Positions 3,682-64,000 of a stretch of DNA of 64,000 nt are shown one piece after another (the stretch's first letter is position 1; each line of letters starts with the position of its first letter). Origin of the DNA: Escherichia coli (GTDB taxonomy: Bacteria; Pseudomonadota; Gammaproteobacteria; Enterobacterales; Enterobacteriaceae); assembly GCF_017348835.2 (NCBI RefSeq), contig NZ_CP071375.1. The stretch is one strand, 5' to 3'. The notes below the pieces were generated by a model that saw only the letters and a program-made list of their open reading frames with translations, made no database searches and was not told the origin of the DNA. The position numbers and the translations under genes were made by a program.

Positions 3682-4010
3682 GGTAGGGCTTACCTGTTCT
3701 TATACATAAAAGCAACAGAATGGTAACATTTTATCGCGGGTAAGCCAATTGATCCCCGTCATTAATCTGGCTATAGCGTGAGCGGCCTTTGCTTTGTCTG
3801 CCTCCTTCTTAACTTATTTATTCACTATTAATCGCTTTTTCTTATGGCTGATAGTTTTATCTTGCCGAAGCGTGCTTTTTTGTTATTGTCTTTATGAAAT
3901 CTTCTTATAAAACAAATATATAAATATTTTATATTGATGGGTTATTTGTATTTATACCATCAATAAAATCCGTTAATTAGCCTGTTTATAAGTGAATAAA
4001 GGAATAGCCG

Positions 4011-5177
4011 ATGATCGAACACTATATTCGAGGGTTTGAGGAAGAACTGCGTGAGATCCGCCATCAGATCCACGAAAACCCGGAGCTGGGATTACAGGAA
4101 TTTAAAACCAGTGCTTTGGTAGCGGAAAAGCTGCGCCAGTGGGGTTATGAGGTTGAGCAAGGGCTGGCGACAACCGGCGTGGTAGCCACGTTAAAAGTGG
4201 GCGACGGAGAGAAAAGTATTGGCCTGCGGGCGGATATGGATGCGTTGCCGATTTATGAAAATAGTGGCAAGCCCTGGGCCAGTAAACATCCTGGTTTAAT
4301 GCACGCCTGCGGGCATGACGGGCATACCACCATACTGCTGGGGGCCGCGCGTTATTTTGCCGAAACCCGCCGTTTTAACGGCACGTTACGTCTTATCTTC
4401 CAGCCTGCGGAAGAGATGATTAACGGCGGTGAGATCATGGTTAAAGAGGGGCTTTTTGATCGTTTCCCCTGCGATGTCATTTTCGGCATGCATAACATGC
4501 CCGGTCTGCCGGTGGGTAAGTTTTATTTCCAGCCAGGGGCACTGATGGCGTCAATGGATCAGTTCCATATTACGGTTCGTGGTTGTGGCGGACACGGTGC
4601 GATCCCGCACAAAGCCATCGATCCGGTGCTGGTTGCCGCACATATCACTACCGCATTACAAAGCATTGTGTCGCGCAATGTCGATCCGCTGGAAGCGGCG
4701 GTAATTACCGTTGGCAGCATTGTTGCAGGGGAGGCGGCTAACGTCATTCCTGACAGTGCTGAGATGAAAATCAGCGTCCGCTCTCTTAGCCGCGATACCC
4801 GACAACTTCTTCTGACCCGTATTCCTGCTTTGGCACAGGCCCAGGCTGCCAGCTTTGGTGCTACGGCTGAGGTTACGCATGTTAACGGTACACCGGTATT
4901 AGTGAATGACGAGGAGATGGCGCGCTTCGCCTGGCAGGTGGCGTGTAAAACGTTTGGTGAAGATCGGGCCGAGTTTGGCATCAAGCCCCTGATGGGCAGT
5001 GAGGATTTCTCTTTCATGCTGGAAGCCCAACCCAAAGGCGGTTTCCTGTTATTCGGTAATGGCGATGTCGGGGAGGGTTCCTGCATGGTGCATAACCCGG
5101 GTTACGACTTCAACGATGCAAGTCTGGTCCCGGCAAGCAGCTACTGGGGCGCACTGGTAGAAGCCTGGCTGCAATAA
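4011..5177 (+). CDS. M20/M20D-family amidohydrolase (hippurate hydrolase / N-acyl-amino-acid amidohydrolase-like), 388 aa
   Basis: Metal-ligand context HACGHDGHT and overall M20D-like sequence; AT-rich upstream region; substrate cannot be told from sequence. Confidence 0.8.
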   Translation: MIEHYIRGFEEELREIRHQIHENPELGLQEFKTSALVAEKLRQWGYEVEQGLATTGVVATLKVGDGEKSIGLRADMDALPIYENSGKPWASKHPGLMHACGHDGHTTILLGAARYFAETRRFNGTLRLIFQPAEEMINGGEIMVKEGLFDRFPCDVIFGMHNMPGLPVGKFYFQPGALMASMDQFHITVRGCGGHGAIPHKAIDPVLVAAHITTALQSIVSRNVDPLEAAVITVGSIVAGEAANVIPDSAEMKISVRSLSRDTRQLLLTRIPALAQAQAASFGATAEVTHVNGTPVLVNDEEMARFAWQVACKTFGEDRAEFGIKPLMGSEDFSFMLEAQPKGGFLLFGNGDVGEGSCMVHNPGYDFNDASLVPASSYWGALVEAWLQ

Positions 5178-5220
5178 ATAAAAAAACAACACAACAACTC
5201 TTTATGGCAAGGAATATGGA

Positions 5221-6541
5221 ATGACGGCGATCGTAAATGAAAGCGTGAGTGTGAAGAAAAAGCCTAGTGGCAGGCGGGTGATTTTTGCTTCGGCGTTTGG
5301 CAATGCGCTCGAATTTTTTGATTTTGGCGTTTACAACTTTTTTGTGGTCTATATCAGTACGCTATTTTTCCCGCCCAGCGCTGATCACAATGTCGCGCTG
5401 TTACTGGCATTTGCAACGTTTGGCGTGAGTTTTTTTATGCGCCCGCTTGGTGGAATTATCGTCGGGGCCTGGGCCGATCGTTTCGGACGCAAACCCGCGA
5501 TGGTGTTCACCATTGCCCTGATGAGCCTCGGCACGTTGATGATTGGCATTGCGCCGACGTATGAAACGGCGGGCTATTGGGGAACCGCGACGCTGGTGCT
5601 AGCGCGTCTAATTCAGGGCGTTGCGGCAGGAGGCGAAGTCGGTGCCTCAATGTCTTTGTTGGTTGAATCAGCTCCGGCAAATCGTCGCGGCTTTTACAGC
5701 AGTTGGTCACTGGCGACTCAAGGCCTGGCAACAACCTTTGGTGGTGTTGTCGCTTTAGGTTTAAGTGCATGGCTGCCCTTTGCGACAGGTTCAGAAACCG
5801 TAATGGCTGAATGGGGCTGGCGTGTGCCATTTTTTATTGGCGTGTTATTAGCACCTATCGGTTGCTGGTTGCGTCTGAGCCTGGAAAATGACGTGCCTGA
5901 GCCTGCCTGTGCGCAATAAAAAAGCTGCTACCAGCGAAAGCGCGTTTTCTCTGCTCCTGCAACATAAGGCGACTATCGTTAATGGCGTTTTACTCGCTAT
6001 TGGTAGCACGGTCGCAACCTATATCTCCCTCTTTTATTACGGCACCTGGGCGGCGAAGTATCTGGCGATGCCTCAACATTATTCTCATGCAGCGATGTTA
6101 CTGGCGGGCGTTATTACGTTTGTGGGTGCGCTGCTTGTGGGGATGTTGTGCGATTCGGTCGGGCGTAAAAAGCTGATTTTAATCTCCCGTGTGATGGTGC
6201 TGATCTGTAGCTGGCCGTCATTCTGGCTGTTGGTGAATTACCCAAGCCCAGGCATGTTGCTGACGGTGGTTTTCGTGATGGTCAGCTTTACCACGCTTGG
6301 CGGTGTGCCAGTGATGTTGTTGATCTCTGAACTGTTGCCGAAACGGATTCGGGCATTGGGTTTTGCGCTGGTTTATAGCATTGGTGTGGCAATCTTTGGC
6401 GGTTTTGCTCAATATTTCGCTACGCAATCCATCGTGTTGCTGGATAGTTTGACGGCTCCGGCGTGGTATTTGGGTGGAGGCACGTTGCTGTCGATGTTGG
6501 CGTTGTTGTACGTAAAAGAACCGGCCAAAGAATTGCAGTAA
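5221..6541 (+). pseudogene. MHS-family MFS transporter (ShiA/KgtP/ProP-like) interrupted by a frameshift; two ORFs 5221-5919 and 5888-6541
   Basis: N-terminal ORF has MFS motifs (RPLGGIIVGAWADRFGRK, ARLIQGVAAGGEVG); C-terminal ORF continues the 12-TM architecture in the +1 frame; the frames overlap at 5888-5919 next to an A6 run. Confidence 0.7.
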
Positions 6542-6647
6542 ATATGTTTTATTGCGTTACCGTTCATTCACAATACTGGAGCAATCCAGTATGTTCATTC
6601 TCTGGTATAGTGCCAGCAGTACTTTTGGCAAGGATTCAGACATCGTG

Positions 6648-7295
6648 ATGGGCGTAAGAGCGCAACAAAAAGAAAAAACCCGCCGTTCGCTGGTGGAAGC
6701 CGCATTTAGCCAATTAAGTGCTGAACGCAGCTTCGCCAGCCTGAGTTTGCGTGAAGTGGCGCGTGAAGCGGGCATTGCTCCCACCTCTTTTTATCGACAT
6801 TTCCGCGACGTAGACGAACTGGGTCTGACCATGGTTGATGAGAGCGGTTTAATGCTACGCCAACTCATGCGCCAGGCGCGTCAGCGTATCGCCAAAGGCG
6901 GGAGTGTGATCCGCACCTCGGTCTCCACATTTATGGAGTTCATCGGTAATAATCCTAACGCCTTCCGGTTATTATTGCGGGAACGCTCCGGCACCTCCGC
7001 TGCGTTTCGTGCCGCCGTTGCGCGTGAAATTCAGCACTTCATTGCGGAACTTGCGGACTATCTGGAACTCGAAAACCATATGCCGCGTGCGTTTACTGAA
7101 GCGCAAGCCGAAGCAATGGTGACAATTGTCTTCAGTGCGGGTGCCGAGGCGTTGGACGTCGGCGTTGAACAACGTCGGCAATTAGAAGAGCGACTGGTAC
7201 TGCAACTGCGAATGATTTCGAAAGGGGCTTATTACTGGTATCGCCGTGAACAAGAGAAAACCGCAATTATTCCGGGAAATGTGAAGGACGAGTAA
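6648..7295 (+). CDS. fabR: TetR-family fatty-acid biosynthesis repressor FabR (215 aa; a 234-aa form would start at 6591)
   Basis: Protein [20 protein letters not shown]... with TetR HTH; ORF-track start 6552 is an upstream extension. Confidence 0.9.
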
Positions 7296-7654
7296 TGAAA
7301 CAAGCAAATCAAGATAGAGGTACGCTGCTGCTGGCGTTAGTTGCTGGCTTATCGATTAATGGTACTTTCGCAGCGCTGTTTAGCTCCATTGTGCCATTTT
7401 CTGTATTCCCGATTATTTCCCTGGTGCTGACGGTTTATTGCCTGCATCAACGTTATCTTAATCGCACTATGCCGGTAGGCTTGCCGGGTCTGGCAGCTGC
7501 CTGTTTTATTCTCGGCGTACTGCTGTACAGCACGGTAGTTCGTGCGGAATATCCGGATATCGGCTCTAACTTCTTCCCGGCAGTACTCTCCGTCATTATG
7601 GTGTTCTGGATTGGCGCGAAGATGCGTAACCGTAAGCAGGAAGTTGCTGAGTAA
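7295..7654 (+). CDS. yijD: small inner-membrane protein YijD (119 aa)
   Basis: Hydrophobic 119-aa ORF overlapping the fabR stop. Confidence 0.85.
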
Positions 7655-7662
7655 TCGGTATC

Positions 7663-7689
7663 ATGCCGGATGCTGGCGCATCCGGCATG
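7663..7689. terminator. bidirectional hairpin (REP-like) between convergent yijD and trmA
   Basis: Inverted repeat ATGCCGGATGC-TGG-CGCATCCGGCAT. Confidence 0.6.
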
Positions 7690-7693
7690 GGTT

Positions 7694-8794
7694 TTACTTC
7701 GCGGTCAGTAATACGCCGCACTCCATATGGTGCGTGTAGGGGAACTGATCAAACAGAGCCAGACGTTCGACCTTGTGCGTCTGGCTTAATGTTTCCAGAT
7801 TCTTGCATAACGTTTCCGGATTGCAGGAGATATACAGAATACGTGGATACGCCTGCACCATTTTCTCGGTTTCACTGTCCAGACCGCTGCGCGGCGGGTC
7901 GACAAAAATGGTTTCGCACTGATAGCTCTTTAAGTCGATCCCTTGCAGGCGGTTAAACTCGCGCACACCATTCATCGCCTGAGTAAATTCTTCTGCCGCC
8001 ATACGAATAATTTGTACGTTATCAATATGGTTAGCGGCAATGTTGTATTGCGCGGCAGCGACCGACGGCTTGGCGATTTCGGTGGCTAATACCCGATCAA
8101 AATTGCGCGCCAGGGCTAATGAGAAGTTACCGTTGCCGCAGTACAGCTCCAGTAAATCGCCTTTTGAGCCTTTGGTTACGTCCAGCGCCCATTCCAGCAT
8201 CTGAATATTCATCGCCGCGTTCGGCTGGGTAAAGCTGTTTTCTACCTGACGGTAGATCATCTCTTTCCCTGCGACCGGCAGACGTTCGTCGATGTAATCT
8301 TGATCCAGCGCGATTTTGGTTTTCGTTGCCCGACCAATCAGATGCACATTCAGATTCTGTGCTCGCAGTGCATCGCGCAGGGCTTCCGCTTCCTGACGCC
8401 ACTCATCATTCAGCTTTTTATGGTACAGCAAGGAAACCACCGCCTGATTACTCAGCGTGGTGAGGTAATCAATCTGGAACAACTTGTGGCGCAGAACGGG
8501 ATTATTACGCACACCCGCAATCATCGCCGTCATCAACTGGTTGATGAGTTCACTGGCGGCGGGGAAGCTATCCACGCGGATACGGCTTTTGGTTTGTTGA
8601 TCGAAAATGATGTGATACAGGTCATCGCCATCGTGCCAGATGCGGAACTCCGCACGCATCCGGTAATGACTGACCGGCGAGCGAAACACTTCCGGAACCA
8701 GGTCAGAAAACGGTGCCATCATACTTTGCAAACGTACCACTTTTTCGGCTAACTGCGCTTCATACTGTTCTGTTGGAAGGTGTTCGGGGGTCAT
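7694..8794 (-). CDS. trmA: tRNA (uracil54-C5)-methyltransferase (366 aa)
   Basis: Full-length ORF of expected size and position with SAM-methyltransferase features. Confidence 0.93.
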
Positions 8795-8921
8795 GATGTA
8801 TCCTGAAAAATTAAAGTACGCGGCGATTGTAGGGATTGCTCATCAGATGTCCAGATCTTGATGAATTCCTATTTGTGAGCTACGTCTGGACAGTAACTTG
8901 TTACAACCTGTAGCATCCACT

Positions 8922-9162
8922 TGCCGGTCCTGTGAGTTAATAGGGAATCCAGTGCGAATCTGGAGCTGACGCGCAGCGGTAAGGAAAGGTGCGATGATTG
9001 CGTTATGCGGACACTGCCATTCGGTGGGAAGTCATCATCTCTTAGTATCTTAGATACCCCTCCAAGCCCGAAGACCTGCCGGCCAACGTCGCATCTGGTT
9101 CTCATCATCGCGTAATATTGATGAAACCTGCGGCATCCTTCTTCTATTGTGGATGCTTTACA
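8922..9162 (+). promoter_or_regulatory. btuB leader containing the adenosylcobalamin (B12) riboswitch
   Basis: Leader reads GCCGGTCCTGTGAGTTAATAGGGAATCCAGTGCGAATCTGGAGCTGACGCGCAGCGGTAAGGAAAGGTGCGATGATTGCG...GCCGGCCAACGTCGCATCTGGTTC, the btuB B12 element; boundaries approximate. Confidence 0.85.
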
Positions 9163-11046
9163 ATGATTAAAAAAGCTTCGCTGCTGACGGCGTGTTCTGT
9201 CACAGCCTTTTCTGCTTGGGCACAGGATACCAGCCCGGATACTCTCGTCGTTACTGCTAACCGTTTTCAGCAGCCAGTAAATACTGTCCTTGCACCTACT
9301 GATATTGTTACCCGTGAGGATATTCAACGCTGGCAGTCGAAAGACCTCAACGATGTTATGAGTCATCTCCCCGGTGTAAATATCTCTCAAACTGGTGGAA
9401 TGGGGACGAGTTCTTCTCTTTATGTTCGTGGCACTGAATCGCGCCATGTTTTAGTGTTGATTGACGGTGTGCCGATGGCTCGTGCCGGTATCGACAATGC
9501 AATTGATATTAGCCAGTTCCCGGTATCACTTGTACAGCGTGTTGAATATATTCGTGGGCCGCGTTCTGCCGTTTATGGTTCTGGTGCCATCGGAGGTGTG
9601 GTGAACATTATTACAATGAGTAATGATGAGAAAGCTCAGATCAACGCAGGAATGGGTACAAATGGTTATCAAGCCTATGATGGGGTAATAAATAAACGTT
9701 TTGGCGATACGATGGTAACAGCAGCAGGTGCTTACCAGACGACCAAAGGTTTTAACATTCAGCCTGGCTCACCATACAGTGGTGATAGCGATCGCGATGG
9801 ATATCGCAACAAACTTTTCTGGGGGGGGCTGCAGCATAAGTTTAACGATAACTTCTCGGGGTTCTTCCGTGGTTACAGCTACACAGCTAATAATGATTAC
9901 GACCAGGGCTCGATGTATGGTTCTGCTACTGGCAACGAAGAAGCTCAGAATTACAACCAGTCCTGGGATACTGGCCTACGCTATAACTCCGGCATCTATT
10001 CGTCTCAGTTAATTGCTAACTATCAACGACTCAAGAATTATAACTACACAAATAATCTTGGTCGTTATGCGGGAGATGCCACCCTGGATGACATGGAACA
10101 GCGTTATATTCAGTGGGGTAATAGCATTGAGGTAGGGCATGGTGCAATTAGCGGCGGGATCGATTGGAAACAGGAAAAACTGACGTCCAGCAGCATTACA
10201 AAATCAGATGATTACGAACGCGATACCACCGGGTTATACCTGACTGGACAGCAACAGATTTCCAATGTGACTTTGGAAGCTTCTGGCCGAGAAGATCATG
10301 ATGAACAGTTTGGCTGGCATGGTACCTGGCAGACAGCTGCTGGCTGGGAGTTTATTGATGGCTACCAGGCAACACTTTCTTACGGTACCAGTTTTCTTTC
10401 GCCTTCTCTTGGACAGCAATACGGGGCTGCTCGCTTTGCTTCAATTTATGGTCCTGGTATTGCAGCCAACCCAAATTTGAAGCCAGAAGAATCTAAACAG
10501 TGGGAGATTGGAATTGAGGGGGTAACTGGGACTCTGGATTGGCGGCTCTCAGGATATCGTTATGAAATTCAGAACCTGATTGATTATAAAAGCATAAATA
10601 ATGTCAACCAGTACATTAATGTGAAATCAGCCACGATTAAAGGGCTGGAATGGACGGGAAATATTACAACCGGTCCTGTTGAACATCGCTTGACGTTACA
10701 ATATGTTGACCCGCGCGATGATGAAACAGATAAAGTGCTGTACCGTCGGGCAAAACAGCAGGTTAAGTACGAGTTGACTGGACAAGCTTATGGTTTCGAA
10801 TGGGACGTTTCTTACCAATATATAGGTCAACGATACGACAACGCTTATGACGAGACCTCTGGCTCATCACATACAGTTAAATTAGGCGGTGTGAGCTTGT
10901 GGGATCTTGCGGTTGCGTATCCGGTCACCTCTCACCTGACAGTTCGTGGTAAAATAGCCAACCTGTTCGACAAAGATTATGAGACAGTCTATGGCTACCA
11001 AACTGCAGGACGGGAATACACCTTGTCTGGCAGCTACACCTTCTGA
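9163..11046 (+). CDS. btuB: TonB-dependent outer-membrane vitamin B12 receptor (about 627 aa here)
   Basis: Signal peptide MIKKASLLTACSVTAFSAWA, TonB box DTLVVTA, C-terminal aromatic residue; ORF-track start 9118 is a leader extension. Confidence 0.93.
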   Translation: MIKKASLLTACSVTAFSAWAQDTSPDTLVVTANRFQQPVNTVLAPTDIVTREDIQRWQSKDLNDVMSHLPGVNISQTGGMGTSSSLYVRGTESRHVLVLIDGVPMARAGIDNAIDISQFPVSLVQRVEYIRGPRSAVYGSGAIGGVVNIITMSNDEKAQINAGMGTNGYQAYDGVINKRFGDTMVTAAGAYQTTKGFNIQPGSPYSGDSDRDGYRNKLFWGGLQHKFNDNFSGFFRGYSYTANNDYDQGSMYGSATGNEEAQNYNQSWDTGLRYNSGIYSSQLIANYQRLKNYNYTNNLGRYAGDATLDDMEQRYIQWGNSIEVGHGAISGGIDWKQEKLTSSSITKSDDYERDTTGLYLTGQQQISNVTLEASGREDHDEQFGWHGTWQTAAGWEFIDGYQATLSYGTSFLSPSLGQQYGAARFASIYGPGIAANPNLKPEESKQWEIGIEGVTGTLDWRLSGYRYEIQNLIDYKSINNVNQYINVKSATIKGLEWTGNITTGPVEHRLTLQYVDPRDDETDKVLYRRAKQQVKYELTGQAYGFEWDVSYQYIGQRYDNAYDETSGSSHTVKLGGVSLWDLAVAYPVTSHLTVRGKIANLFDKDYETVYGYQTAGREYTLSGSYTF

Positions 11047-11848
11047 ACCACGTCCCACCGTGCTGGTGTTTGACTCCGGCGTCGGTGGGTTGTCGGTCTA
11101 TGACGAGATCCGGCATCTCTTACCGGATCTCCACTACATTTATGCTTTCGATAACGTCGCTTTCCCGTATGGCGAAAAAAGCGAAGAGTTTATTGTTGAG
11201 CGAGTGGTGGCAATTGTCACCGCAGTGCAAGAACGTTATCCCCTTGCGCTGGCGGTGGTCGCTTGCAACACCGCCAGTACCGTTTCACTTCCTGCATTAC
11301 GCGAAAAGTTCGACTTCCCGGTTGTTGGTGTCGTGCCGGCGATTAAACCTGCTGCACGTCTGACGGCAAATGGCATTGTCGGATTACTGGCAACCCGCGG
11401 AACAGTTAAACGTTCTTATACTCATGAGCTGATCGCGCGATTCGCTAATGAATGCCAGATAGAAATGCTGGGCTCGGCAGAGATGGTTGAGTTGGCTGAA
11501 GCGAAGCTGCATGGCGAAGATGTTTCTCTGGATGCGCTAAAACGTATCTTGCGTCCGTGGTTAAGAATGAAAGAGCCGCCAGATACCGTTGTATTGGGTT
11601 GCACCCATTTCCCTCTACTACAAGAAGAACTGTTACAAGTGCTGCCAGAGGGAACACGGCTGGTGGATTCTGGCGCAGCGATTGCTCGCCGAACGGCCTG
11701 GTTGTTAGAACATGAAGCCCCGGATGCAAAATCTGCCGATGCGAATATTGCCTTTTGTATGGCAATGACGCCAGAAGCTGAACAATTATTGCCCGTTTTA
11801 CAGCGTTACGGCTTCGAAACGCTCGAAAAACTGGCAGTTTTAGGCTGA
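10991..11848 (+). CDS. murI: glutamate racemase (285 aa)
   Basis: Starts MATKLQDGNT inside the last 56 nt of btuB in another frame. Confidence 0.9.
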   Translation: MATKLQDGNTPCLAATPSEPRPTVLVFDSGVGGLSVYDEIRHLLPDLHYIYAFDNVAFPYGEKSEEFIVERVVAIVTAVQERYPLALAVVACNTASTVSLPALREKFDFPVVGVVPAIKPAARLTANGIVGLLATRGTVKRSYTHELIARFANECQIEMLGSAEMVELAEAKLHGEDVSLDALKRILRPWLRMKEPPDTVVLGCTHFPLLQEELLQVLPEGTRLVDSGAAIARRTAWLLEHEAPDAKSADANIAFCMAMTPEAEQLLPVLQRYGFETLEKLAVLG

Positions 11849-11869
11849 TTTGGTTGAATGTTGCGCGGT

Positions 11870-12095
11870 CAGAAAATTATTTTAAATTTCCTCTTGTCAG
11901 GCCGGAATAACTCCCTATAATGCGCCACCACTGACACGGAACAACGGCAAACACGCCGCCGGGTCAGCGGGGTTCTCCTGAGAATTCCGGCAGAGAAAGC
12001 AAAAATAAATGCTTGACTCTGTAGCGGGAAAGCGTATTATGCACACCCCGAGCCGCTGAGAAAAAGCGAAGCGGCACTGCTCTTTAACAATTTAT
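11870..12095 (+). promoter_or_regulatory. rrnB-type tandem promoters P1 and P2 with UP element and boxA antiterminator
   Basis: P1 TTGTCA (11894-11899) / TATAAT (11916-11921) with A/T-rich upstream; P2 TTGACT (12013-12018) / TATTAT (12035-12040); boxA TGCTCTTTAACAA at 12078-12090. Confidence 0.85.
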
Positions 12096-12221
12096 CAGAC
12101 AATCTGTGTGGGCACTCGAAGATACGGATTCTTAACGTCGCAAGACGAAAAATGAATACCAAGTCTCAAGAGTGAACACGTAATTCATTACGAAGTTTAA
12201 TTCTTTGAGCATCAAACTTTT

Positions 12222-13763
<1,542 letters not shown>

Positions 13764-13848
13764 CCTTAAAGAAGCGTTCTTTGTAGTGCTCACACAGATT
13801 GTCTGATAGAAAGTGAAAAGCAAGGCGTCTTGCGAAGCAGACTGATAC

Positions 13849-13924
13849 GTCCCCTTCGTCTAGAGGCCCAGGACACCGCCCTTTCACGGCGGTAACAGGG
13901 GTTCGAATCCCCTAGGGGACGCCA
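13849..13924 (+). tRNA. gltT: tRNA-Glu in the 16S-23S spacer
   Basis: GTCCCCTTCGTCTAGAGG...GGGGACGCCA, 76 nt. Confidence 0.95.
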
Positions 13925-14117
13925 CTTGCTGGTTTGTGAGTGAAAGTCACCTGCCTTAATATCTCAAAACTCATCTTCGGGTGATGTTTGAGATATTTGC
14001 TCTTTAAAAATCTGGATCAAGCTGAAAATTGAAACACTGAACAACGAGAGTTGTTCGTGAGTCTCTCAAATTTTCGCAACACGATGATGGATCGCAAGAA
14101 ACATCTTCGGGTTGTGA

Positions 14118-46984: not shown

Positions 46985-47019
46985 GGTTAATCCTCCAGTG
47001 GTTGTCTTACTTCGGGTAT

Positions 47020-47035
47020 TGCATTTTCCGTGCCA
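47020..47035 (-). promoter_or_regulatory. sigma54 (-24/-12) promoter of zraP
   Basis: Minus strand reads TGGCACGGAAAATGCA, matching TGGCAC-N5-TTGCA. Confidence 0.8.
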
Positions 47036-47074
47036 ACGGTGAAACGCTGATATGACGGGCAATCTGGCGTGATA

Positions 47075-47123
47075 GGCGAGTAAAAATGACTCGCCTGCTG
47101 CGGGTGGCGAGTCATTTTTACTC
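47075..47123. promoter_or_regulatory. ZraR enhancer: paired dyad-symmetric sites between the divergent sigma54 promoters
   Basis: GGCGAGTAAAAATGACTCGCC (47075-47095) and GGCGAGTCATTTTTACTC (47106-47123) are inverted copies of one another. Confidence 0.7.
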
Positions 47124-47174
47124 ATTGAAACTTAAGTCTTTGTGTTACAGCGCAGGGTAAGCGCTGATAAAAGA

Positions 47175-47190
47175 TGGCATGATTTCTGCT
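47175..47190 (+). promoter_or_regulatory. sigma54 promoter of zraSR
   Basis: TGGCAT-GATTT-CTGCT about 30 nt upstream of the zraS start. Confidence 0.65.
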
Positions 47191-47221
47191 GTCAGAAAGG
47201 GATGAGCAGGCAAAGAAGAAG

Positions 47222-48598
47222 ATGCGTTTTATGCAATGTTCTAAAGACTCCTTCGCTAAATGGTTAAGCGCGATCCTCCCCGTAGTCATTGTTGGGCTGG
47301 TGGGGTTGTTTGCGGTAACGGTGATTCGCGATTATGGGCGCGAGACTGCCGCCGCCAGACAAACGCTGCTGGAAAAAGGCAGTGTACTTATTCGCGCTCT
47401 TGAATCCGGCTCGCGCGTCGGCATGGGGATGCGCATGCATCATGCGCAGCAGCAGGCCTTACTGGAAGAAATGGCCGGGCAGCCTGGAGTACGTTGGTTT
47501 GCGGTCACGGATGAACAAGGAACAATCGTGATGCATAGCAACTCCGGCATGGTGGGAAAACAGCTTTATTCCCCGCAGGAAATGCAGCAGTTACATCCGG
47601 GAGATGAAGAAGTGTGGCGGCGGATCGATAGCGCAGACGGCGAGCCTGTTCTGGAAATTTATCGCCAGTTTCAACCGATGTTTGCTGCTGGAATGCACCG
47701 GATGCGCCATATGCAGCAGTATGCCGCGACACCACAAGCAATTTTCATCGCTTTCGACGCCAGTAATATTGTGAGTGCCGAAGATCGTGAGCAGAGAAAC
47801 ACCCTGATTATCCTCTTCGCCCTGGCGACGGTCTTGCTGGCAAGCGTATTGTCATTCTTCTGGTATCGCCGTTATCTGCGCTCGCGCCAGCTTCTACAAG
47901 ATGAAATGAAGCGCAAAGAGAAGCTGGTGGCGCTGGGGCATCTTGCGGCAGGCGTTGCCCACGAAATCCGTAACCCACTTTCCTCGATTAAAGGACTGGC
48001 GAAATACTTTGCCGAGCGCGCGCCTGCAGGGGGAGAAGCGCATCAACTGGCGCAGGTGATGGCGAAAGAGGCCGACCGTTTAAACCGCGTGGTAAGCGAG
48101 TTGCTGGAACTGGTTAAGCCAACGCATCTGGCATTGCAGGCGGTGGATCTCAACACGCTGATTAACCACTCATTACAGCTGGTAAGCCAGGATGCAAACA
48201 GCCGGGAGATCCAGTTACGCTTTACCGCCAACGACACATTACCGGAAATTCAGGCCGATCCGGACAGGCTGACTCAGGTCCTGTTGAATCTCTATCTCAA
48301 TGCTATTCAGGCGATTGGTCAGCATGGCGTGATTAGCGTGACGGCCTGCGAAAGCGGCGCGGGCGTGAAAATCAGCGTTACCGACAGCGGTAAGGGAATT
48401 GCGGCAGATCAGCTTGAAGCCATCTTCACTCCGTACTTCACCACCAAAGCCGAAGGCACCGGATTGGGGCTGGCGGTCGTGCATAATATTGTTGAACAAC
48501 ACGGTGGTACAATTCAGGTCGCAAGCCAGAAGGGAAAAGGCTCAACGTTCACCCTCTGGCTTCCGGTCAATATTACGCGTAAGGACCCACAAGGATGA
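47222..48598 (+). CDS. zraS: sensor histidine kinase ZraS (458 aa as called)
   Basis: N-terminal TM and periplasmic region, H-box GHLAAGVAHEIRNPL, ATPase G-boxes. Confidence 0.9.
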   Translation: MRFMQCSKDSFAKWLSAILPVVIVGLVGLFAVTVIRDYGRETAAARQTLLEKGSVLIRALESGSRVGMGMRMHHAQQQALLEEMAGQPGVRWFAVTDEQGTIVMHSNSGMVGKQLYSPQEMQQLHPGDEEVWRRIDSADGEPVLEIYRQFQPMFAAGMHRMRHMQQYAATPQAIFIAFDASNIVSAEDREQRNTLIILFALATVLLASVLSFFWYRRYLRSRQLLQDEMKRKEKLVALGHLAAGVAHEIRNPLSSIKGLAKYFAERAPAGGEAHQLAQVMAKEADRLNRVVSELLELVKPTHLALQAVDLNTLINHSLQLVSQDANSREIQLRFTANDTLPEIQADPDRLTQVLLNLYLNAIQAIGQHGVISVTACESGAGVKISVTDSGKGIAADQLEAIFTPYFTTKAEGTGLGLAVVHNIVEQHGGTIQVASQKGKGSTFTLWLPVNITRKDPQG

Positions 48599-59546: not shown

Positions 59547-60476
59547 ATGCCGATTCGTGTGCCGGACGAGCTGCCCGCCGTCAATTTCTTGCGTGAAGAA
59601 AACGTCTTTGTGATGACAACTTCTCGTGCGTCTGGTCAGGAAATTCGTCCACTTAAGGTTCTGATCCTTAACCTGATGCCGAAGAAGATTGAAACTGAAA
59701 ATCAATTTCTGCGCCTGCTTTCAAACTCACCTTTGCAGGTCGATATTCAGCTGTTGCGCATCGATTCCCGTGAATCGCGCAACACGCCCGCAGAGCATCT
59801 GAACAACTTCTACTGTAACTTTGAAGATATTCAGGAACAGAACTTTGACGGTCTGATTGTAACCGGTGCGCCGCTGGGCCTGGTGGAGTTTAATGATGTC
59901 GCTTACTGGCCGCAGATCAAACAGGTGCTGGAGTGGTCGAAAGATCACGTCACCTCGACGCTGTTTGTCTGCTGGGCGGTACAGGCCGCGCTCAATATCC
60001 TCTACGGCATTCCTAAGCAAACTCGCACCGACAAACTCTCTGGCGTTTACGAGCATCATATTCTCCATCCTCATGCGCTTCTGACGCGTGGCTTTGATGA
60101 TTCATTCCTGGCACCACATTCGCGCTATGCTGACTTTCCGGCAGCGTTGATTCGTGATTATACCGATCTGGAAATTCTGGCAGAGACAGAAGAAGGAGAT
60201 GCGTATCTGTTTGCCAGCAAAGACAAGCGTATCGCCTTTGTGACGGGGCATCCGGAATACGACGCACATACGCTGGCGCAGGAATATTTCCGCGATGAGG
60301 AAGCCGGACTAAAACCGGATGTACCGTATAACTATTTTCCGCACAACGATCCGCAAAACAAACCGCGAGCGAGCTGGCGTAGTCACGGTAATTTGCTATT
60401 TACCAACTGGCTCAACTATTACGTCTACCAGATCACGCCATACGATCTGCGCCGTATGAATCCAACGCTGGATTAA
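59547..60476 (+). CDS. metA: homoserine O-succinyltransferase (309 aa)
   Basis: [45 protein letters not shown]. Confidence 0.95.
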
Positions 60477-60482
60477 TCCTTA

Positions 60483-60510
60483 CAGCTCCCGAAACTTCAT
60501 TCGGGAGCTG
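60483..60510. terminator. bidirectional terminator hairpin shared by metA and the convergent dehydratase operon
   Basis: CAGCTCCCGAA-ACTTCA-TTCGGGAGCTG, 11-bp stem. Confidence 0.8.
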
Positions 60511-60516
60511 TCTCTG

Positions 60517-61704
60517 TCAGGCCATCCGACAAGCTACTGGTGAATAATCGAAGGCTTTATAGGTCAGAACAAACTCTTTATGCCCCAGCCGCTCTGCGCT
60601 ACAAAGTTTACCGCTGCTGACTTCCTCAATGCAGTGCAACATATCGCTTGCGACATCATCAAGCGATGCACCTTCACTGATAATCCTGCCAGCATTAATA
60701 TCCATATCATCCGCCATATTGGCCCAGGTTTGTGGGTTGTTACAGACTTTAATCACTGGCGCAATTACGGAGCCGATCACTGAACCTCGTCCGGTGGTAA
60801 ACAAAATCATATGACATCCGGTAGCGATAAGTTCCATCGCTTCTGATGAGTCATTGATGTTGGGATAGCCGAAACGCGCTTCGCCGTCGGGAACCACATC
60901 CATCAGATACAGACCAGGGTAAGGGGCATGTTCTGTCGGGAGTAAAACGCCCTGAATAGGGCTATCGCCTGACTTTGTATAGGCACCCAGCGATTTTTCT
61001 TCTTGCGTGGTTAACCCGCCGACGGCGTTACCGTTAGAAAAACTGCCTAAACCCATTGTCGCGTAATAGCGTTTAGCTTTATCCATTGCTGCATCAATCG
61101 CCTCTCTGGCCGCAGGTGTCGCCGCTCGCGCCATCATGTGGCCTTCACAACCAATCAACTCGCCGCTCTCTTCAAAAATGCAGGTCGCGCCTTGTGCGAG
61201 GAGTCGATCAAACGCGCGACCTACGGCAGGATTGCCCGTAATGCCGCTGGTGCCGTCGGAACCGCCGCAAATCGTACCAATAACTAAATCACTGAACGCA
61301 ATCGGGCGAACCGCCACCTGCTTAATTTGCGCCAGCATCTCTGTGACACAAACTTTGCCCCGTTTGATGGTTTCTGTAGTTCCCTTATTTTCCTGGATAA
61401 CCAGCTTATGGCATGGGCGACCACTGGCGATGACATCTTCATAAAGTTTATCGCGATCAAAGTTTTCGCAGCCGAGGGCGATAATCAACACCGCACCAAC
61501 ATTGGGATGGGTCGCCAGTCCTTTTACCAGTCGGTAGCCGTAGTCCGTGGGGTAACAGCCGGAAAAACCAAAATACTGCACGTCTTCATTTGTGAAAGAC
61601 TCAGCGATCGCTTTGGCAACGTGGCTGGCGCATTCCACCATAAAGATGACTTGTACGCTGTTACGTATACCGACTCTGCCATCTTGTCTCATGTAACCCT
61701 GCAT
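60517..61704 (-). CDS. UxaA/GarD-family sugar-acid dehydratase, large catalytic subunit (395 aa)
   Basis: Resembles the C-terminal catalytic domain of altronate/galactarate dehydratases; start codon overlaps the stop of the upstream SAF-domain ORF. Confidence 0.75.
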   Translation of the reverse strand: MQGYMRQDGRVGIRNSVQVIFMVECASHVAKAIAESFTNEDVQYFGFSGCYPTDYGYRLVKGLATHPNVGAVLIIALGCENFDRDKLYEDVIASGRPCHKLVIQENKGTTETIKRGKVCVTEMLAQIKQVAVRPIAFSDLVIGTICGGSDGTSGITGNPAVGRAFDRLLAQGATCIFEESGELIGCEGHMMARAATPAAREAIDAAMDKAKRYYATMGLGSFSNGNAVGGLTTQEEKSLGAYTKSGDSPIQGVLLPTEHAPYPGLYLMDVVPDGEARFGYPNINDSSEAMELIATGCHMILFTTGRGSVIGSVIAPVIKVCNNPQTWANMADDMDINAGRIISEGASLDDVASDMLHCIEEVSSGKLCSAERLGHKEFVLTYKAFDYSPVACRMA

Positions 61705-62024
61705 CAGGCCTCTCCTGCTGGCTCATAGCCCGCATTATCATGGTGGAATACGGCGATATAATCGCTGTTCAGGTTATGGGAATGGATATGCTCGCCAATA
61801 GGGATAGCCTGACTGGCAGAGCCAATGCCTGCGCCATATTTACGAACTTTATCGCCCTGACATAACGTTTCGATTGCCAGCTTATGCCCAAGAGCAACGT
61901 AGCTTTGTGCCACAAATTCACCACCGTCATAGTGGACGCGATCGCCTTGCTGAATATCTTCCAGGGCGACAACGCAGTTATCGAGTTTGTGTAATAGCAG
62001 AGCGCGTTTATTCATGTTCACCAA
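61704..62024 (-). CDS. UxaA/GarD-family dehydratase small subunit, SAF-domain protein (106 aa)
   Basis: 106-aa ORF resembling the N-terminal SAF domain of UxaA-family dehydratases, immediately upstream of and coupled to the large subunit. Confidence 0.65.
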   Translation of the reverse strand: MVNMNKRALLLHKLDNCVVALEDIQQGDRVHYDGGEFVAQSYVALGHKLAIETLCQGDKVRKYGAGIGSASQAIPIGEHIHSHNLNSDYIAVFHHDNAGYEPAGEA

Positions 62025-62071
62025 CTCTCCTGGTTGTGGGGATACAGGCGACCCACAGGCCGCCCGACTGT

Positions 62072-62836
62072 TTAGAAACCGATCAGCGCGCCGCCATCGA
62101 CAATCAGAACCTGACCGCTAACGAAACCGGCAGCATCAGAAGCCAGATAGGTTGCAGCCCAGCCGATATCTTCTGGTTTGCCGAATTTTTTCATCGGTGT
62201 ACGACCAAGAATTTTATTTTTACGCTCATCGTCACCCTCAATGGCTTTGCGCAGCATTGGCGTATCAATCCAGCCCGGAGCGACGCCGTTAACGCGGATC
62301 CCTGCGCCAGAAAGTTCGGTTGCCATGCCATGAATCAGCCCGAGGTAGGCAGACTTCGCGGCAGCATAGCCGGTGACATAAGGTTGACCGAGGAACGATG
62401 TCATTGAGGCGGTAAAAAGCACACAGGCATTGCCATGCTGTTTCATATGAGGGACCAGCGAGCGAGTCAGAGCGAACGCGCCAACGACATGGACATCAAG
62501 AACCGATTCAAAATCAGCGACGCTCATCTCTTCGATCGGTTTTTTACAGTGATTTCCGGCGTTATTGACCAGAATATCGATCTGATTATGCTGGCTCAGA
62601 AGGCCGTCTACCCAACTTTCCGTCTCGTCAGTGTGGGCCACATTGAACTGGCTCCAGGATGCATTTGGCCCCAGCGACTCGGCAGCGTTTTTGGCAGCTT
62701 CGCCATTGAGATCGGCAATGATGACTTTTGCGCCACAGGCGATCATGCATTTAGCCATTGCATAGCCCAGGCCACTGGCGGAACCGGTGATCAGGGCAGT
62801 TTTATTTTCCAGTGAAAAGGGGTTATTCATCGTCAT
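62072..62836 (-). CDS. short-chain dehydrogenase/reductase (gluconate 5-dehydrogenase / KduD-like), 254 aa
   Basis: Rossmann motif TGSASGLGYA, NNAG motif, catalytic YAAAK. Confidence 0.85.
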   Translation of the reverse strand: MTMNNPFSLENKTALITGSASGLGYAMAKCMIACGAKVIIADLNGEAAKNAAESLGPNASWSQFNVAHTDETESWVDGLLSQHNQIDILVNNAGNHCKKPIEEMSVADFESVLDVHVVGAFALTRSLVPHMKQHGNACVLFTASMTSFLGQPYVTGYAAAKSAYLGLIHGMATELSGAGIRVNGVAPGWIDTPMLRKAIEGDDERKNKILGRTPMKKFGKPEDIGWAATYLASDAAGFVSGQVLIVDGGALIGF

Positions 62837-62861
62837 GATTTTTTTCTCGTCAGATAAAGGG

Positions 62862-63875
62862 TTAGAGGTCGATTAAAATTTTGGTGAATGCGCCGGGATC
62901 GGCGGCCCAGTCGCTGAACGCCCGATCGGCAGTATCAATCGGGTAGTGCGCGGAAATAATTAGCTCAATGGGGTAGCACTGCTTTTCCATTAAAGAGAGA
63001 ACTGCTCTGAAATCGGCAACGGTGGCGTTGCGGGAACCACGGATATCCAGCTCTTTCATGAGGAAGCGCGCGCTCTCATAATTCACCGGTTTTTTCGCAT
63101 AGCCGACGTACACCACGCGCCCGCAGAAGGCAGCCAGCTCGACTGCCTGCTCGATGGTTTTATCCAGGCCAATGGCTTCAATCACCACCGCAGGACCGCG
63201 GTCTTCGTTCAGTTTCGCCAGGATCTCAGCAACATTTTCGCGTGCGCTGTTGATATACCTTTCGGCACCACATGCCTTCGCTACCGCCTGCTTACGATCG
63301 TCGATATCAATGGCTACCACGCGACCGCCCATCGCGTTAGCTGCTGCAATAGCGCCAAGACCAATCACGCCGCAGCCCATAACGACGACCCATTCGCCAA
63401 CATTGATTTGCGCCCGGCGCGCAGCGTGAAGACCAACGGCTAATGGTTCGACTAACGCCAGTTCGTCACTGGAAAGGGAATTACAGACAATGACTTTATT
63501 GGCCGGAATAGACAGCAGCGGCACCATACCGCCCTGGCGCTGAACGCCAAGAGTCTGGTTGTTTTTACAGGCATTCGGGCGACCGCTCAGACAGGAACTG
63601 CAATGACCGCATTCGGTACAGGGCAGAACAACAACACGATCGCCTTCCAGAATATGTTTAACCTGGCTGCCTGTTTGCAGGATCTTGCCGCCGATTTCAT
63701 GACCGGGAATGCAAGGATACTGCGTGAGGGGATTTAGCCCGCGCCAGGTATTTAAATCTGAACCGCATAAACCAACTCGTTCAACACGAATTAATACATG
63801 GTCGGCTGGGCAATCAGGTTCGGCGATATCAATAAATCGCGTTACGGAACCTTTATCAATGGCTAACGCTTTCAT
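62862..63875 (-). CDS. Zn-dependent medium-chain dehydrogenase (sorbitol / L-idonate dehydrogenase-like), about 337 aa
   Basis: Catalytic Zn ligands (GLCGSDL...GHEIGG) and structural Zn cysteines (CTECGHCSSC); likely start MKALAIDKG at 63875, ORF-track start 63956 is an extension. Confidence 0.82.
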   Translation of the reverse strand: MKALAIDKGSVTRFIDIAEPDCPADHVLIRVERVGLCGSDLNTWRGLNPLTQYPCIPGHEIGGKILQTGSQVKHILEGDRVVVLPCTECGHCSSCLSGRPNACKNNQTLGVQRQGGMVPLLSIPANKVIVCNSLSSDELALVEPLAVGLHAARRAQINVGEWVVVMGCGVIGLGAIAAANAMGGRVVAIDIDDRKQAVAKACGAERYINSARENVAEILAKLNEDRGPAVVIEAIGLDKTIEQAVELAAFCGRVVYVGYAKKPVNYESARFLMKELDIRGSRNATVADFRAVLSLMEKQCYPIELIISAHYPIDTADRAFSDWAADPGAFTKILIDL

Positions 63876-63888
63876 ATAAAAACCTTTT

Positions 63889-64000
63889 TTAAAGTGAATC
63901 GGATGAAATAACAGAATCGGTATTTTTAATATTTCTCTTAATAGGTTTAACGCCAAAGGCTACCCCAAGAGCGCCGATTACCCCAATGGCACCCGCAAGA
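63889..64000 (-). CDS. 3' end (last 36 codons) of a membrane protein, probably the operon's transporter; 5' end outside the window
   Basis: Minus-strand frame open to the window edge, ending ...LAGAIGVIGALGVAFGVKPIKRNIKNTDSVISSDSL-stop, 14 nt upstream of the dehydrogenase start. Confidence 0.5.
   Translation of the reverse strand, partial: LAGAIGVIGALGVAFGVKPIKRNIKNTDSVISSDSL

Follow-up and report, generated by a model that had tools for sequence, protein, structure and literature searches.

Between metA and aceB, at the end of a 64,000-nucleotide stretch of the Escherichia coli contig NZ_CP071375.1 (hereafter, the window), we found the promoter-distal half of a six-gene catabolic operon that is accompanied by a divergent GntR/FCD repressor gene. 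The operon makes up an accessory island that is almost certainly devoted to the catabolism of an acidic sugar, and it encodes the whole of a regulated sugar-acid pathway, one of a known kind but assembled mostly from non-orthologous parts. In the model that we favor, L-galactonate would be converted via 2-keto-3-deoxygluconate (KDG) to pyruvate and glyceraldehyde; every substrate and reaction in it was deduced from sequence, and we give the model as a whole an even chance of being right. The window features that bear on it are the following:

59547-60476, plus strand: metA, intact
60479-64000: in-window part of the accessory island, located between metA and aceB (blastn against K-12)
60482-60511: hairpin with a perfect 12-bp stem, beginning six bases 3' of metA (RNA folding)
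60517-61704, minus strand: large subunit of the dehydratase, 395 aa (Pfam GD_AH_second, 2.8e-28; GD_AH_C, 3.8e-78)
61704-62015, minus strand: small subunit of the dehydratase, 103 aa (Pfam SAF, 2.4e-6)
62072-62836, minus strand: short-chain dehydrogenase/reductase (SDR), 254 aa (Pfam adh_short_C2, 6e-57)
62862-63875, minus strand: Zn-dependent alcohol dehydrogenase (Zn-ADH), 337 aa (Pfam ADH_N, 2e-25; ADH_zinc_N, 8e-28)
63889-64000, minus strand: 3' end of a major facilitator superfamily (MFS) transporter gene, the last ~37 codons (~112 bases) of 432 aa; the gene exceeds the window

The four complete minus-strand genes of the island are all intact. The initial annotation of this DNA had described a minus-strand operon converging on metA, with a Zn-dependent dehydrogenase, an SDR and a two-piece UxaA/GarD-family dehydratase, and all of these genes were found where it had placed them, with every Pfam call in agreement; the 3' end of a membrane protein that it had also noted proved to be the C-terminus of the MFS transporter, whose complete gene is seen in strain PE164 (locus L001, 23413-24711). 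This PE164 locus is 99.93% identical to the window over 23.5 kb, and in it the operon continues beyond the window with the remainder of the MFS gene, an RraA-family gene and the divergent GntR/FCD regulator, followed by aceB. The operon described earlier was correct for the in-window genes, and the unit is longer by the RraA-family gene and the GntR regulator, giving, from the promoter, the order RraA-like protein, MFS transporter, Zn-ADH, SDR, dehydratase small subunit and dehydratase large subunit. By blastn, the insert measures 6,487 bp, starts at window position 60479, 2 nt past the metA stop, and substitutes 18 bp of the spacer of K-12, where aceBAK directly follows metA. K-12 homology picks up again at L001 26490, and extrapolation from PE164 sets the island end near window-equivalent 66965. 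The alignment with K-12 also showed that the native metA terminator was relocated to just past the regulator gene of the island.

Proposed Pathway and the Two Dehydrogenases

The MFS transporter scored 333 bits against NCBIfam TIGR00893, the D-galactonate or anion:cation-symporter subfamily, whose cut-off is 395, and it is 33% identical to GarP, 30% to LgoT and 80% to the MFS protein of a Sodalis cluster. [quoted passage not shown] A polyol, which the initial annotation had kept as an option, is unlikely given these acid-type transporter families, and we discarded it as a candidate on that ground.

The Zn-ADH has the catalytic residues Cys37 and His58-Glu59, a GxGxxG motif at residue 167, and the structural-zinc pattern C89-x2-C92-x2-C95-x7-C103. 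Its matches in E. coli were LgoD (35% identity over 300 aa, 169 bits, the best), RspB (29.5%, 139 bits) and IdnD (27%, 104 bits), and its best match in the PDB was RspB (4ilk, E 6e-39). We propose that this medium-chain enzyme is an L-aldonate 5-dehydrogenase, with L-galactonate as the candidate substrate. The SDR is of the classical type, with TGxxxGxG at residue 17, NNAG at 91 and YxxxK at 157, and has an Asp in the stretch IIADLNG near residue 40, at the end of the second beta strand; its cofactor is probably NAD(H). The best tested homolog in E. coli was IdnO, the 5-keto-D-gluconate 5-reductase (37.5% identity), and the PDB matches included gluconate 5-dehydrogenases, with E values of about 1e-38 to 1e-41. 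We propose that it reduces a 5-keto-aldonate (D-tagaturonate, possibly fructuronate). A role of the KduI/KduD type was rejected, as the identity to KduD is only 32% and KduI was nearby in 4 of the 80 RraA-like loci analyzed below.

In the proposed pathway, the MFS anion symporter would import an L-aldonate, most likely L-galactonate, whose C5 would be oxidized by the Zn-ADH, generating D-tagaturonate. This compound would then be reduced by the SDR with the opposite stereochemistry, yielding D-altronate, which is the C5 epimer of L-galactonate; the net reaction would be a redox-neutral epimerization at C5, as with IdnD/IdnO. The split dehydratase would convert D-altronate to KDG, and the RraA-family protein would cleave KDG to pyruvate and D-glyceraldehyde, bypassing KdgK/Eda, with the GntR regulator probably binding a 33-bp palindrome upstream of the RraA-family gene. 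We regard it as likely that the two dehydrogenases epimerize an aldonate before it is dehydrated; that L-galactonate is the substrate, and that an RraA-type aldolase takes the last step, each appear about as likely as not. That two dehydrogenases and a dehydratase would give a 2-keto-3-deoxy sugar acid was also the earlier reading of this DNA, and we arrived at the same prediction. A putative aldolase of the RraA family is part of the operon, so that pyruvate, and not the keto-deoxy acid, is the probable end product. The substrate, which had been called not deducible from the sequence, is still a prediction, but it can be deduced in part, with L-galactonate as the leading candidate.

The arrangement of the two dehydrogenase genes is like that of IdnD/IdnO in the L-idonate pathway of E. 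coli, where a Zn-dependent 5-dehydrogenase gene stands directly before a 254-aa SDR gene and the pair epimerizes C5. However, the identity of the Zn-ADH to IdnD is only 27%, a gluconate kinase is missing from the island, and the pathway proceeds through a dehydratase, a step that would be unsuited to D-gluconate. The overall logic is the same as in the LgoT/LgoR/LgoD-UxaB-UxaA-KdgK-Eda system of E. coli, the characterized LguD/LguC/LguB of Luteolibacter, and the predicted Lgo/Lfo of Halomonas: a transporter for an acid and a regulator of the GntR type are combined with a Zn-dependent dehydrogenase for the aldonate, a reductase for the keto-uronate and a dehydratase of the UxaA family, leading to KDG. 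E. coli and Luteolibacter have an established route that takes L-galactonate via D-tagaturonate and D-altronate to KDG (PMC12632266), and the same route was predicted for the Halomonas loci, also with a non-orthologous reductase and a TRAP transporter (PMC5507952). The island departs from these systems in several parts: its reductase is an SDR, not the mannitol-dehydrogenase-family UxaB; its dehydratase comes in two polypeptides and is 30% identical to UxaA; its Zn-ADH is 35% identical to LgoD over 300 aa and may not be its ortholog; an RraA-family gene takes the place of the KdgK/Eda link; and all the genes stand in one operon.

A Recurring Module in Other Bacteria

The contexts of the dehydratase were analyzed in seven sampled relatives, with 64-91% identity to the large subunit, and those of the RraA-like protein in 402 loci, one genome per species being scanned and the neighbors being clustered for the best 80. 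All seven dehydratase relatives were accompanied by the RraA-like protein, the SDR, the SAF protein and an acid transporter, most of them also by a GntR regulator, and the full module was found in 17 of the best 80 RraA-like loci, including those of Sodalis, Citrobacter, Pedobacter, Prevotella and Succinivibrionaceae. The 402 loci span Enterobacterales, Bacteroidota, Rhizobiales and other groups, and the set of RraA-like protein, SDR and split dehydratase is a recurring module across phyla.

Several of these clusters have a uronate isomerase. In Propionivibrio (L005), the module is found with a UxaC that is 47% identical to the E. coli enzyme, and L025 and L032 also carry UxaC. In L010 (10437-11687) and L011 (9341-10594), we found, next to the module, a 416-aa protein orthologous to the uronate isomerase of the Bh0493 type (PDB 2q08, E 5e-155); since this gene has no Pfam annotation, an annotation gap hides a key pathway enzyme in both loci. 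The TRAP binding protein of L005 resembles 4n15, 4ln5, 4n8y and 4mhf, with E values down to 1e-116, and we take these structures to bind D-glucuronate or D-galacturonate (hexuronate-type); the binding protein of L011 is 83% identical to that of L005, and the one of L010 is of another type. The Zn-ADH was found only with an island-type MFS or with a TRAP transporter whose binding protein is of the 4ovt type, not the hexuronate type.

Uronate isomerases and an LgoD/IdnD-like 5-dehydrogenase would both yield a 5-keto-aldonate, with D-tagaturonate coming from D-galacturonate in the first case and from L-galactonate in the second. Because both feeders converge on a 5-keto-uronate, the SDR could have a single role in all the clusters, and since it is 77-81% identical between isomerase-type and ADH-type clusters, one function is the economical assumption. 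This range covers the module SDRs of Sodalis, Propionivibrio and the E. coli paralog, the island protein and that of the UxaC-containing cluster being 77% identical. No reductase of the UxaB/UxuB type was present within 9 kb in the best 80 RraA-like loci or in the island, and none was listed in Propionivibrio; the absence from the 80 loci leaves the SDR as the only candidate keto-uronate reductase. With UxaC or a Bh0493-type isomerase, the sister clusters are like the canonical hexuronate pathway (UxaC, UxaB/UxuB, UxaA/UxuA, KdgK and Eda), whereas in the island the Zn-ADH replaces the isomerase, and non-orthologous proteins also take over the reduction, the dehydration and the last step. We tentatively propose, at slightly less than even chances, that the RraA-family KDG aldolase, the SDR and the split UxaA form a self-contained module, which would convert hexuronates, delivered by an isomerase, or L-aldonates, delivered by the Zn-ADH, to pyruvate and glyceraldehyde with no need of KdgK/Eda.

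The Split Dehydratase

The domain set of the UxaA/GarD family (SAF, GD_AH_second and GD_AH_C) is complete in the island and spread over two genes, and the TGA stop of the small subunit overlaps the ATG of the large subunit as TGATG, an overlap by which the two subunits are predicted to be translationally coupled. The large subunit is 30% identical to E. coli UxaA (174 bits) and 29% to GarD (129 bits), and its sole PDB match was GarD (6u7l, E 5e-32); the small subunit aligned with the N-terminus of UxaA, with 40% identity over 78 aa. Against the GarD equivalog TIGR03248, with a cut-off of 730.85 bits, the large and small subunits reached only 167.6 and 29.3 bits. By these identities and scores, the enzyme is a member of the UxaA/GarD family that is neither GarD nor UxaA, and the large piece is the presumed catalytic subunit of a two-piece sugar-acid dehydratase. 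Homologs of the large subunit are widespread and carry generic annotation only. Substrates of the UxaA family are aldonates that have the D-altronate configuration at C2-C4, a configuration common to L-galactonate, L-fuconate, D-arabinonate and galactarate.

In the main rival order of events, the dehydratase would act directly on the imported aldonate, as in the non-phosphorylative L-fuconate or L-galactonate routes of the C. jejuni, Veillonella or fungal type, yielding 2-keto-3-deoxy-L-fuconate (L-KDF) or 2-keto-3-deoxy-L-galactonate. The RraA-like protein could then, as an aldolase, form pyruvate and L-lactaldehyde or L-glyceraldehyde, with the two dehydrogenases processing the aldehyde; or the SDR could oxidize C4, in which case the RraA-like protein, which may have a role as a beta-diketone hydrolase, would hydrolyze the 2,4-diketo acid to pyruvate and L-lactate or L-glycerate. 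We consider this route rather unlikely, though not negligible. It agrees with the finding that the large subunit is 60% identical to a homolog in a Sphingopyxis cluster of the known L-fucose layout, composed of an aldo-keto reductase, a lactonase, an SDR, a RhaM mutarotase, a hydrolase of the fumarylacetoacetate-hydrolase (FAH) family and a lactate-dehydrogenase-like gene, and with the fucose locus of Campylobacter jejuni, where cj0482 and cj0483 are both annotated as UxaA family hydrolases and the pathway ends in an aldolase. Proteins of the D-altronate dehydratase family reportedly take part in L-fucose, L-galactose and D-arabinose pathways, to judge by the title of a 2019 report of Watanabe et al. 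Moreover, a family of FAH-RraA fusions (NF009399) exists, the TRAP binding protein of the paralogous island described below is 67% identical to Oant_3902, whose ligand we take to be L-fuconate, and the direct route would explain the need for a kinase-independent cleavage enzyme. On the other hand, it leaves the Zn-ADH with no clear role, and in the aldolase version the SDR as well, and it offers no reason for the uronate isomerases that accompany orthologous modules, or for the lack of another reductase in their vicinity. In addition, the SDR is no closer to the SDR of the Sphingopyxis cluster (34% identity) than to IdnO (37.5%), and its best PDB matches included no structure of an L-KDF dehydrogenase.

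The C. jejuni L-fucose/D-arabinose locus (Cj0482/Cj0483) is like the island in having a two-gene UxaA-family dehydratase, a kinase-free sugar-acid pathway and an aldolase ending. It differs in that it begins at the neutral sugar, by means of a sugar 1-dehydrogenase and a lactonase, and employs a class I aldolase of the DHDPS type along with an aldehyde dehydrogenase, with neither a Zn-ADH nor an RraA-family gene. In Sphingopyxis (L007/L008, 6811-8004), the SAF piece is fused to the C-terminus of an Amidohydro_2 lactonase, giving a protein of 397 aa whose SAF region is 41% identical to the island SAF protein over 82 aa; such a fusion would physically link the lactonase and dehydratase steps.

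The division into two subunits is also that of SuyAB, in which a SAF subunit of ~100 aa is joined by one of ~400 aa, and the island enzyme could on this basis be read as a sulfolactate sulfo-lyase, with the dehydrogenases racemizing or oxidizing sulfolactate or 2,3-dihydroxypropanesulfonate (DHPS). Sulfonate pathways do employ pairs of dehydrogenases and TRAP or MFS importers, and E. coli degrading sulfoquinovose excretes DHPS. Nevertheless, we found no sulfonate or sulfite gene in the island or the sampled relatives, including any sulfite exporter, sulfite dehydrogenase or ComC/SlcC/HpsN-type gene, and the contexts were dominated by uronate isomerases, pectin-related genes and the L-fucose-type cluster. 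Among the 120 best homologs of the large subunit, not one carried the name of a sulfo-lyase, and the RraA-like protein would be left with no role; judged by gene context, desulfonation is highly improbable.

The RraA-Family Protein

The RraA-family protein has 228 aa (PF03737, 1.5e-32) and was aligned to the Pseudomonas putida HMG/CHA aldolase (3noj) with an E value of 2e-11. Its residues G106, R128 and D129 aligned with G101, R123 and D124 of 3noj, which line the pyruvate pocket, stabilize the pyruvate enolate and bind the metal, respectively, and are described as essential (PMC5065237). In nine orthologs, G106, G107, R128, D129 and E132 were invariant, the Glu being located three residues after the Asp (Arg-Asp-x2-Glu), as in yeast Yer010c. 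The protein has the hallmarks of a class II pyruvate aldolase, i.e., the PF03737 fold with the Arg, the Asp and a further acidic ligand, and, given the aligned and invariant catalytic residues, it looks catalytically competent for the cleavage of a 4-substituted 2-oxo acid between C3 and C4. It remained below the cut-offs of the HMG/CHA aldolase equivalogs NF006731 (76.8 bits, cut-off 179) and TIGR02798 (72.5, cut-off 304.5), and of the RNase E regulator RraA (NF006875; 49.6 bits, cut-off 136). By these scores it belongs to a distinct subfamily, neither an HMG/CHA aldolase nor an RNase E regulator ortholog. The likeness to the HMG/CHA aldolase concerns the fold, the aligned Arg and Asp, and the Glu three residues on, whereas the context in the island is sugar-acid and not aromatic catabolism, and the proposed substrate is a monocarboxylic keto-deoxy hexonate.

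The neighbors of the best 80 RraA-like loci included an SDR in 54, the split UxaA dehydratase in 17, a mannonate dehydratase of the UxuA type in 23, a shorter UxuA-like protein in 37 and an enolase-superfamily protein in 5. A cluster of 12 UxuA loci, from Rhizobiales and relatives, has the UxuA gene immediately upstream of the RraA-like gene, and its representative scored 514 bits against a cut-off of 191. KdgK was nearby in two of the 80 loci and Eda in three, never in the dehydratase-containing loci. The split UxaA, UxuA-type and enolase-superfamily proteins are sugar-acid dehydratases of three unrelated families. What these contexts have in common is a dehydratase forming KDG or a close analogue, and the lack of the kinase and aldolase that would usually follow. 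Because KDG-type dehydratases adjoin the RraA-like gene in the absence of these two enzymes, we propose that it encodes a kinase-independent KDG aldolase. Full-text searches of the literature yielded no experimental characterization of a module of RraA-like protein, SDR and split UxaA, or of an RraA-type KDG aldolase.

Oxidation rather than epimerization was also weighed. In such a route, the dehydrogenases would convert L-galactonate to D-galacturonate and this to galactarate, and the dehydratase would act like GarD to give 5-keto-4-deoxy-glucarate; the RraA-like protein would either cleave this product, as GarL does, or dehydrate and decarboxylate it in the manner of FlDet. Galactarate dehydratase is indeed the only NCBIfam and PDB match of the dehydratase, the SDR passes the cut-off of the NCBIfam 'glucose 1-dehydrogenase' subfamily (222 against 215 bits), and genes for Dak, a hydroxypyruvate-isomerase-like protein and an NAD_binding_2-family (tartronate-semialdehyde-reductase-like) protein stand close to the L011 module. 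The RraA family is known to include a 2-keto-3-deoxyglucarate dehydratase/decarboxylase (PMC8563752), and the substrates of the HMG/CHA aldolase are di- and tricarboxylic acids (PMC5065237). Still, we find this route very unlikely: the uronate isomerases of the sister clusters would be pointless in it, the RraA-like gene adjoins a genuine UxuA, which makes KDG instead of a keto-deoxy-aldarate, the dehydratase is slightly nearer to UxaA (174 bits) than to GarD (129 bits), and the island has neither a 2-oxoglutarate-semialdehyde dehydrogenase nor a gene of the GarR/GarK type.

Two further observations were made on this protein family. The RraA-like protein matched NCBIfam NF009399 (PRK12764), a 501-aa fusion of fumarylacetoacetate-hydrolase and RraA-like domains, which hints at a functional link between two pyruvate-forming folds. 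Besides, in L027, L034 and ~25 other Bacteroidota loci (L027-L100), the RraA-like gene of marine Flavobacteriia lies within SusC/SusD polysaccharide-utilization loci, with a sugar-porter MFS, a lactonase of the beta-propeller type, an SDR resembling IdnO, a UxuA-like protein, two CoA-transferases of the CaiB type and an enoyl-CoA hydratase among its neighbors; these loci look like a different, uncharacterized pathway, possibly for a deoxy sugar.

Weight and Significance of the Proposed Pathway

Several observations weigh against the conversion of L-galactonate by epimerization and aldol cleavage. All the characterized enzymes are at most 37.5% identical to the island proteins. K-12 encodes lgoD, uxaA, kdgK and eda, and also uxaB; with one L-galactonate route already encoded in K-12, an E. 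coli strain bearing the island would probably have two. A metagenomic copy of the module (L012) adjoins genes for a full-length UxaA-family protein, a mannitol-dehydrogenase-family protein (UxaB/UxuB-type) and a PfkB-family kinase, and these neighbors hint that the module may handle a different stereoisomer. In Sodalis RH16, the MFS is present (80% identity), whereas a Zn-ADH is missing. The L-fucose-type cluster with its 60%-identical homolog and the split UxaA of C. jejuni suggest that the dehydratase could act on L-fuconate or L-galactonate directly, with no epimerization. Finally, the existence of the RraA-family 2-keto-3-deoxyglucarate dehydratase/decarboxylase mentioned above indicates that aldol cleavage is not the sole chemistry of the RraA fold.

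Sources of L-galactonate and hexuronates are pectin, plant ascorbate metabolism and L-galactose-containing glycans, and accessory sugar-acid pathways contribute to niche partitioning among gut E. coli. Both the island and its gltA-abrB paralog, which is present in 12% of the complete E. coli genomes, are annotated only generically. If the proposed pathway is correct, ~12% of E. coli genomes, plus those with the rare metA island, would hold an unrecognized non-phosphorylative branch of sugar-acid catabolism, with non-orthologous replacements of UxaB and UxaA and a kinase-free end for the hexuronate and L-galactonate pathways, and a large RraA subfamily usually mislabeled 'ribonuclease regulator' or 'menaquinone methyltransferase' would gain a catabolic function. 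Should it prove wrong, the island would remain useful as a clean and rare marker of strains, set in a conserved locus and so far found only in pig-associated isolates.

Distribution and Origin of the Island

The insertion relative to K-12 that had been claimed for this site is real and rare. Among 5,426 complete E. coli genomes, only those of PE164 and F2_81, two strains from pigs, contain the island, and the 3.5-kb segment within the window is 100% identical in them; at the sensitivity of megablast, no island at 85% identity or more was found in the other 5,424, and K-12-like genomes have none of these genes between metA and aceB. The island shows the traits of a horizontally acquired element, with a patchy distribution, precise junctions at a conserved site, and atypical GC content and flanks: its GC content is 0.479, against 0.53 for aceBAK, and identity to K-12 falls to 93.7% at window positions 60001-60478 and to 94.9% at L001 26490-27000, compared with 98-99.8% elsewhere, recovering within about 2 kb of the island. 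Such a pattern points to entry of the island through homologous recombination with a diverged donor, or to an old polymorphism that recombination has since eroded; the flanks themselves look like the scar of a recombination event or like DNA transferred along with the island. Inspection of the junctions by eye, and of the annotation, showed no integrase, insertion sequence element or direct repeat, no search for repeats having been run. Carriage on a plasmid was discarded, as PLSDB contained no copy and gave only distant partial matches on alpha-proteobacterial megaplasmids, and an origin of the strain in a cryptic clade was rejected because the window, with 98-99.8% identity to K-12 away from the island, is that of an ordinary E. 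coli. On two metagenomic contigs (L018 and L019), the island likewise adjoins metA, at ~82% nucleotide identity; because the metA of L018 has diverged as much as the island itself (83% identity), the arrangement is presumably old in some other lineage.

A more sensitive search revealed a paralogous island, 68.5% identical and in one copy each, in 661 further complete E. coli genomes. It is located between gltA and abrB, in a different gene order, and contains the RraA-like, Zn-ADH, SDR and split UxaA genes, a TRAP transporter (DctPQM) instead of the MFS, and a divergent GntR gene:

6137-13942: paralogous island, locus coordinates in L002/L003 (E. coli MS6198 and IMT16316)

The large subunit, small subunit, SDR, Zn-ADH and RraA-like proteins of the two islands are 75, 62, 80, 75 and 77% identical, respectively, and the gltA-abrB version is also present in E. 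albertii and E. whittamii. In FXCREC145, a transposase of the ISApl1 family is annotated inside the matched region, which aligned in two pieces. The predicted structure of the TRAP binding protein (pLDDT 97) superposed in Foldseek on 4ovt (Oant_3902; 67% identity, TM 0.98) and on 4o8m (43% identity). We take the ligands of these two structures, which reportedly come from the study of Vetting et al. 2015, to be L-fuconate and L-galactonate, respectively. A TRAP system with dual L-fuconate/L-galactonate specificity from the Vetting study is mentioned by Leyn et al. (PMC5507952).

Regulator, Candidate Operator, and Hairpin 3' of metA

The regulator consists of a GntR domain (6.5e-13) and a C-terminal FCD domain (3e-22) and is transcribed divergently from the operon. 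In the intergenic region, 52-84 nt upstream of the start of the RraA-like gene and outside the window, we found a perfect 33-bp palindrome, AACCTATAAACCTGT-TTG-ACAGGTTTATAGGTT (15+15 bp with a 3-nt center; L001 25517-25549, window-equivalent about 65993-66025). It is identical in the ~82%-diverged L018 and L019, where the surrounding intergenic DNA is only ~75% identical, and two Sodalis loci preserve its core, AAACCTGT-N3-ACAGG, which in the gltA-abrB paralog has one change. This palindrome is likely to be the GntR operator; the candidate came only from alignment, a regex search for generic GT-N-AC GntR boxes having yielded little.

The 'strong bidirectional terminator' that the initial annotation had assigned to metA and the operon was upheld in part. 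The hairpin at 60482-60511 is stable on both strands, with a free energy of -23.3 kcal/mol on the plus strand and -23.4 on the minus strand, and z scores of -5.0 and -4.8, none of 200 shuffled sequences being as stable. However, no T-run flanks it on either side and the consensus terminator scan gave no call, so that termination can only be presumed; the hairpin is a plausible factor-independent terminator or mRNA-stabilizing element for both convergent transcripts. Read by eye, L018 has at the same position what may be a shorter hairpin, which differs in sequence and has TTTT after it.

Other Accessory Segments

Additional differences from K-12 were observed away from the island. At window positions 3800-6550, an insertion between sthA and fabR contains an M20-family amidohydrolase gene (4011-5177; TIGR01891, 359 bits) and an MFS gene of the metabolite/H+ symporter type that seems split (5221-5919 and 5888-6541), possibly by a frameshift. 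Two segments, 9000-10600 and 47000-48000, are ~81% identical to K-12 amid DNA of 98-99% identity; by the gene order in K-12 and PE164 they are located in the btuB region and in or near zraS, and they look like divergent alleles, presumably imported by recombination. Outside the window, at L001 41783-43524, PE164 has L-sorbose genes (sorE and a sorbose-family phosphotransferase system IID component) after pepE, where K-12 has rluF, a further accessory carbohydrate locus ~15 kb from the island.

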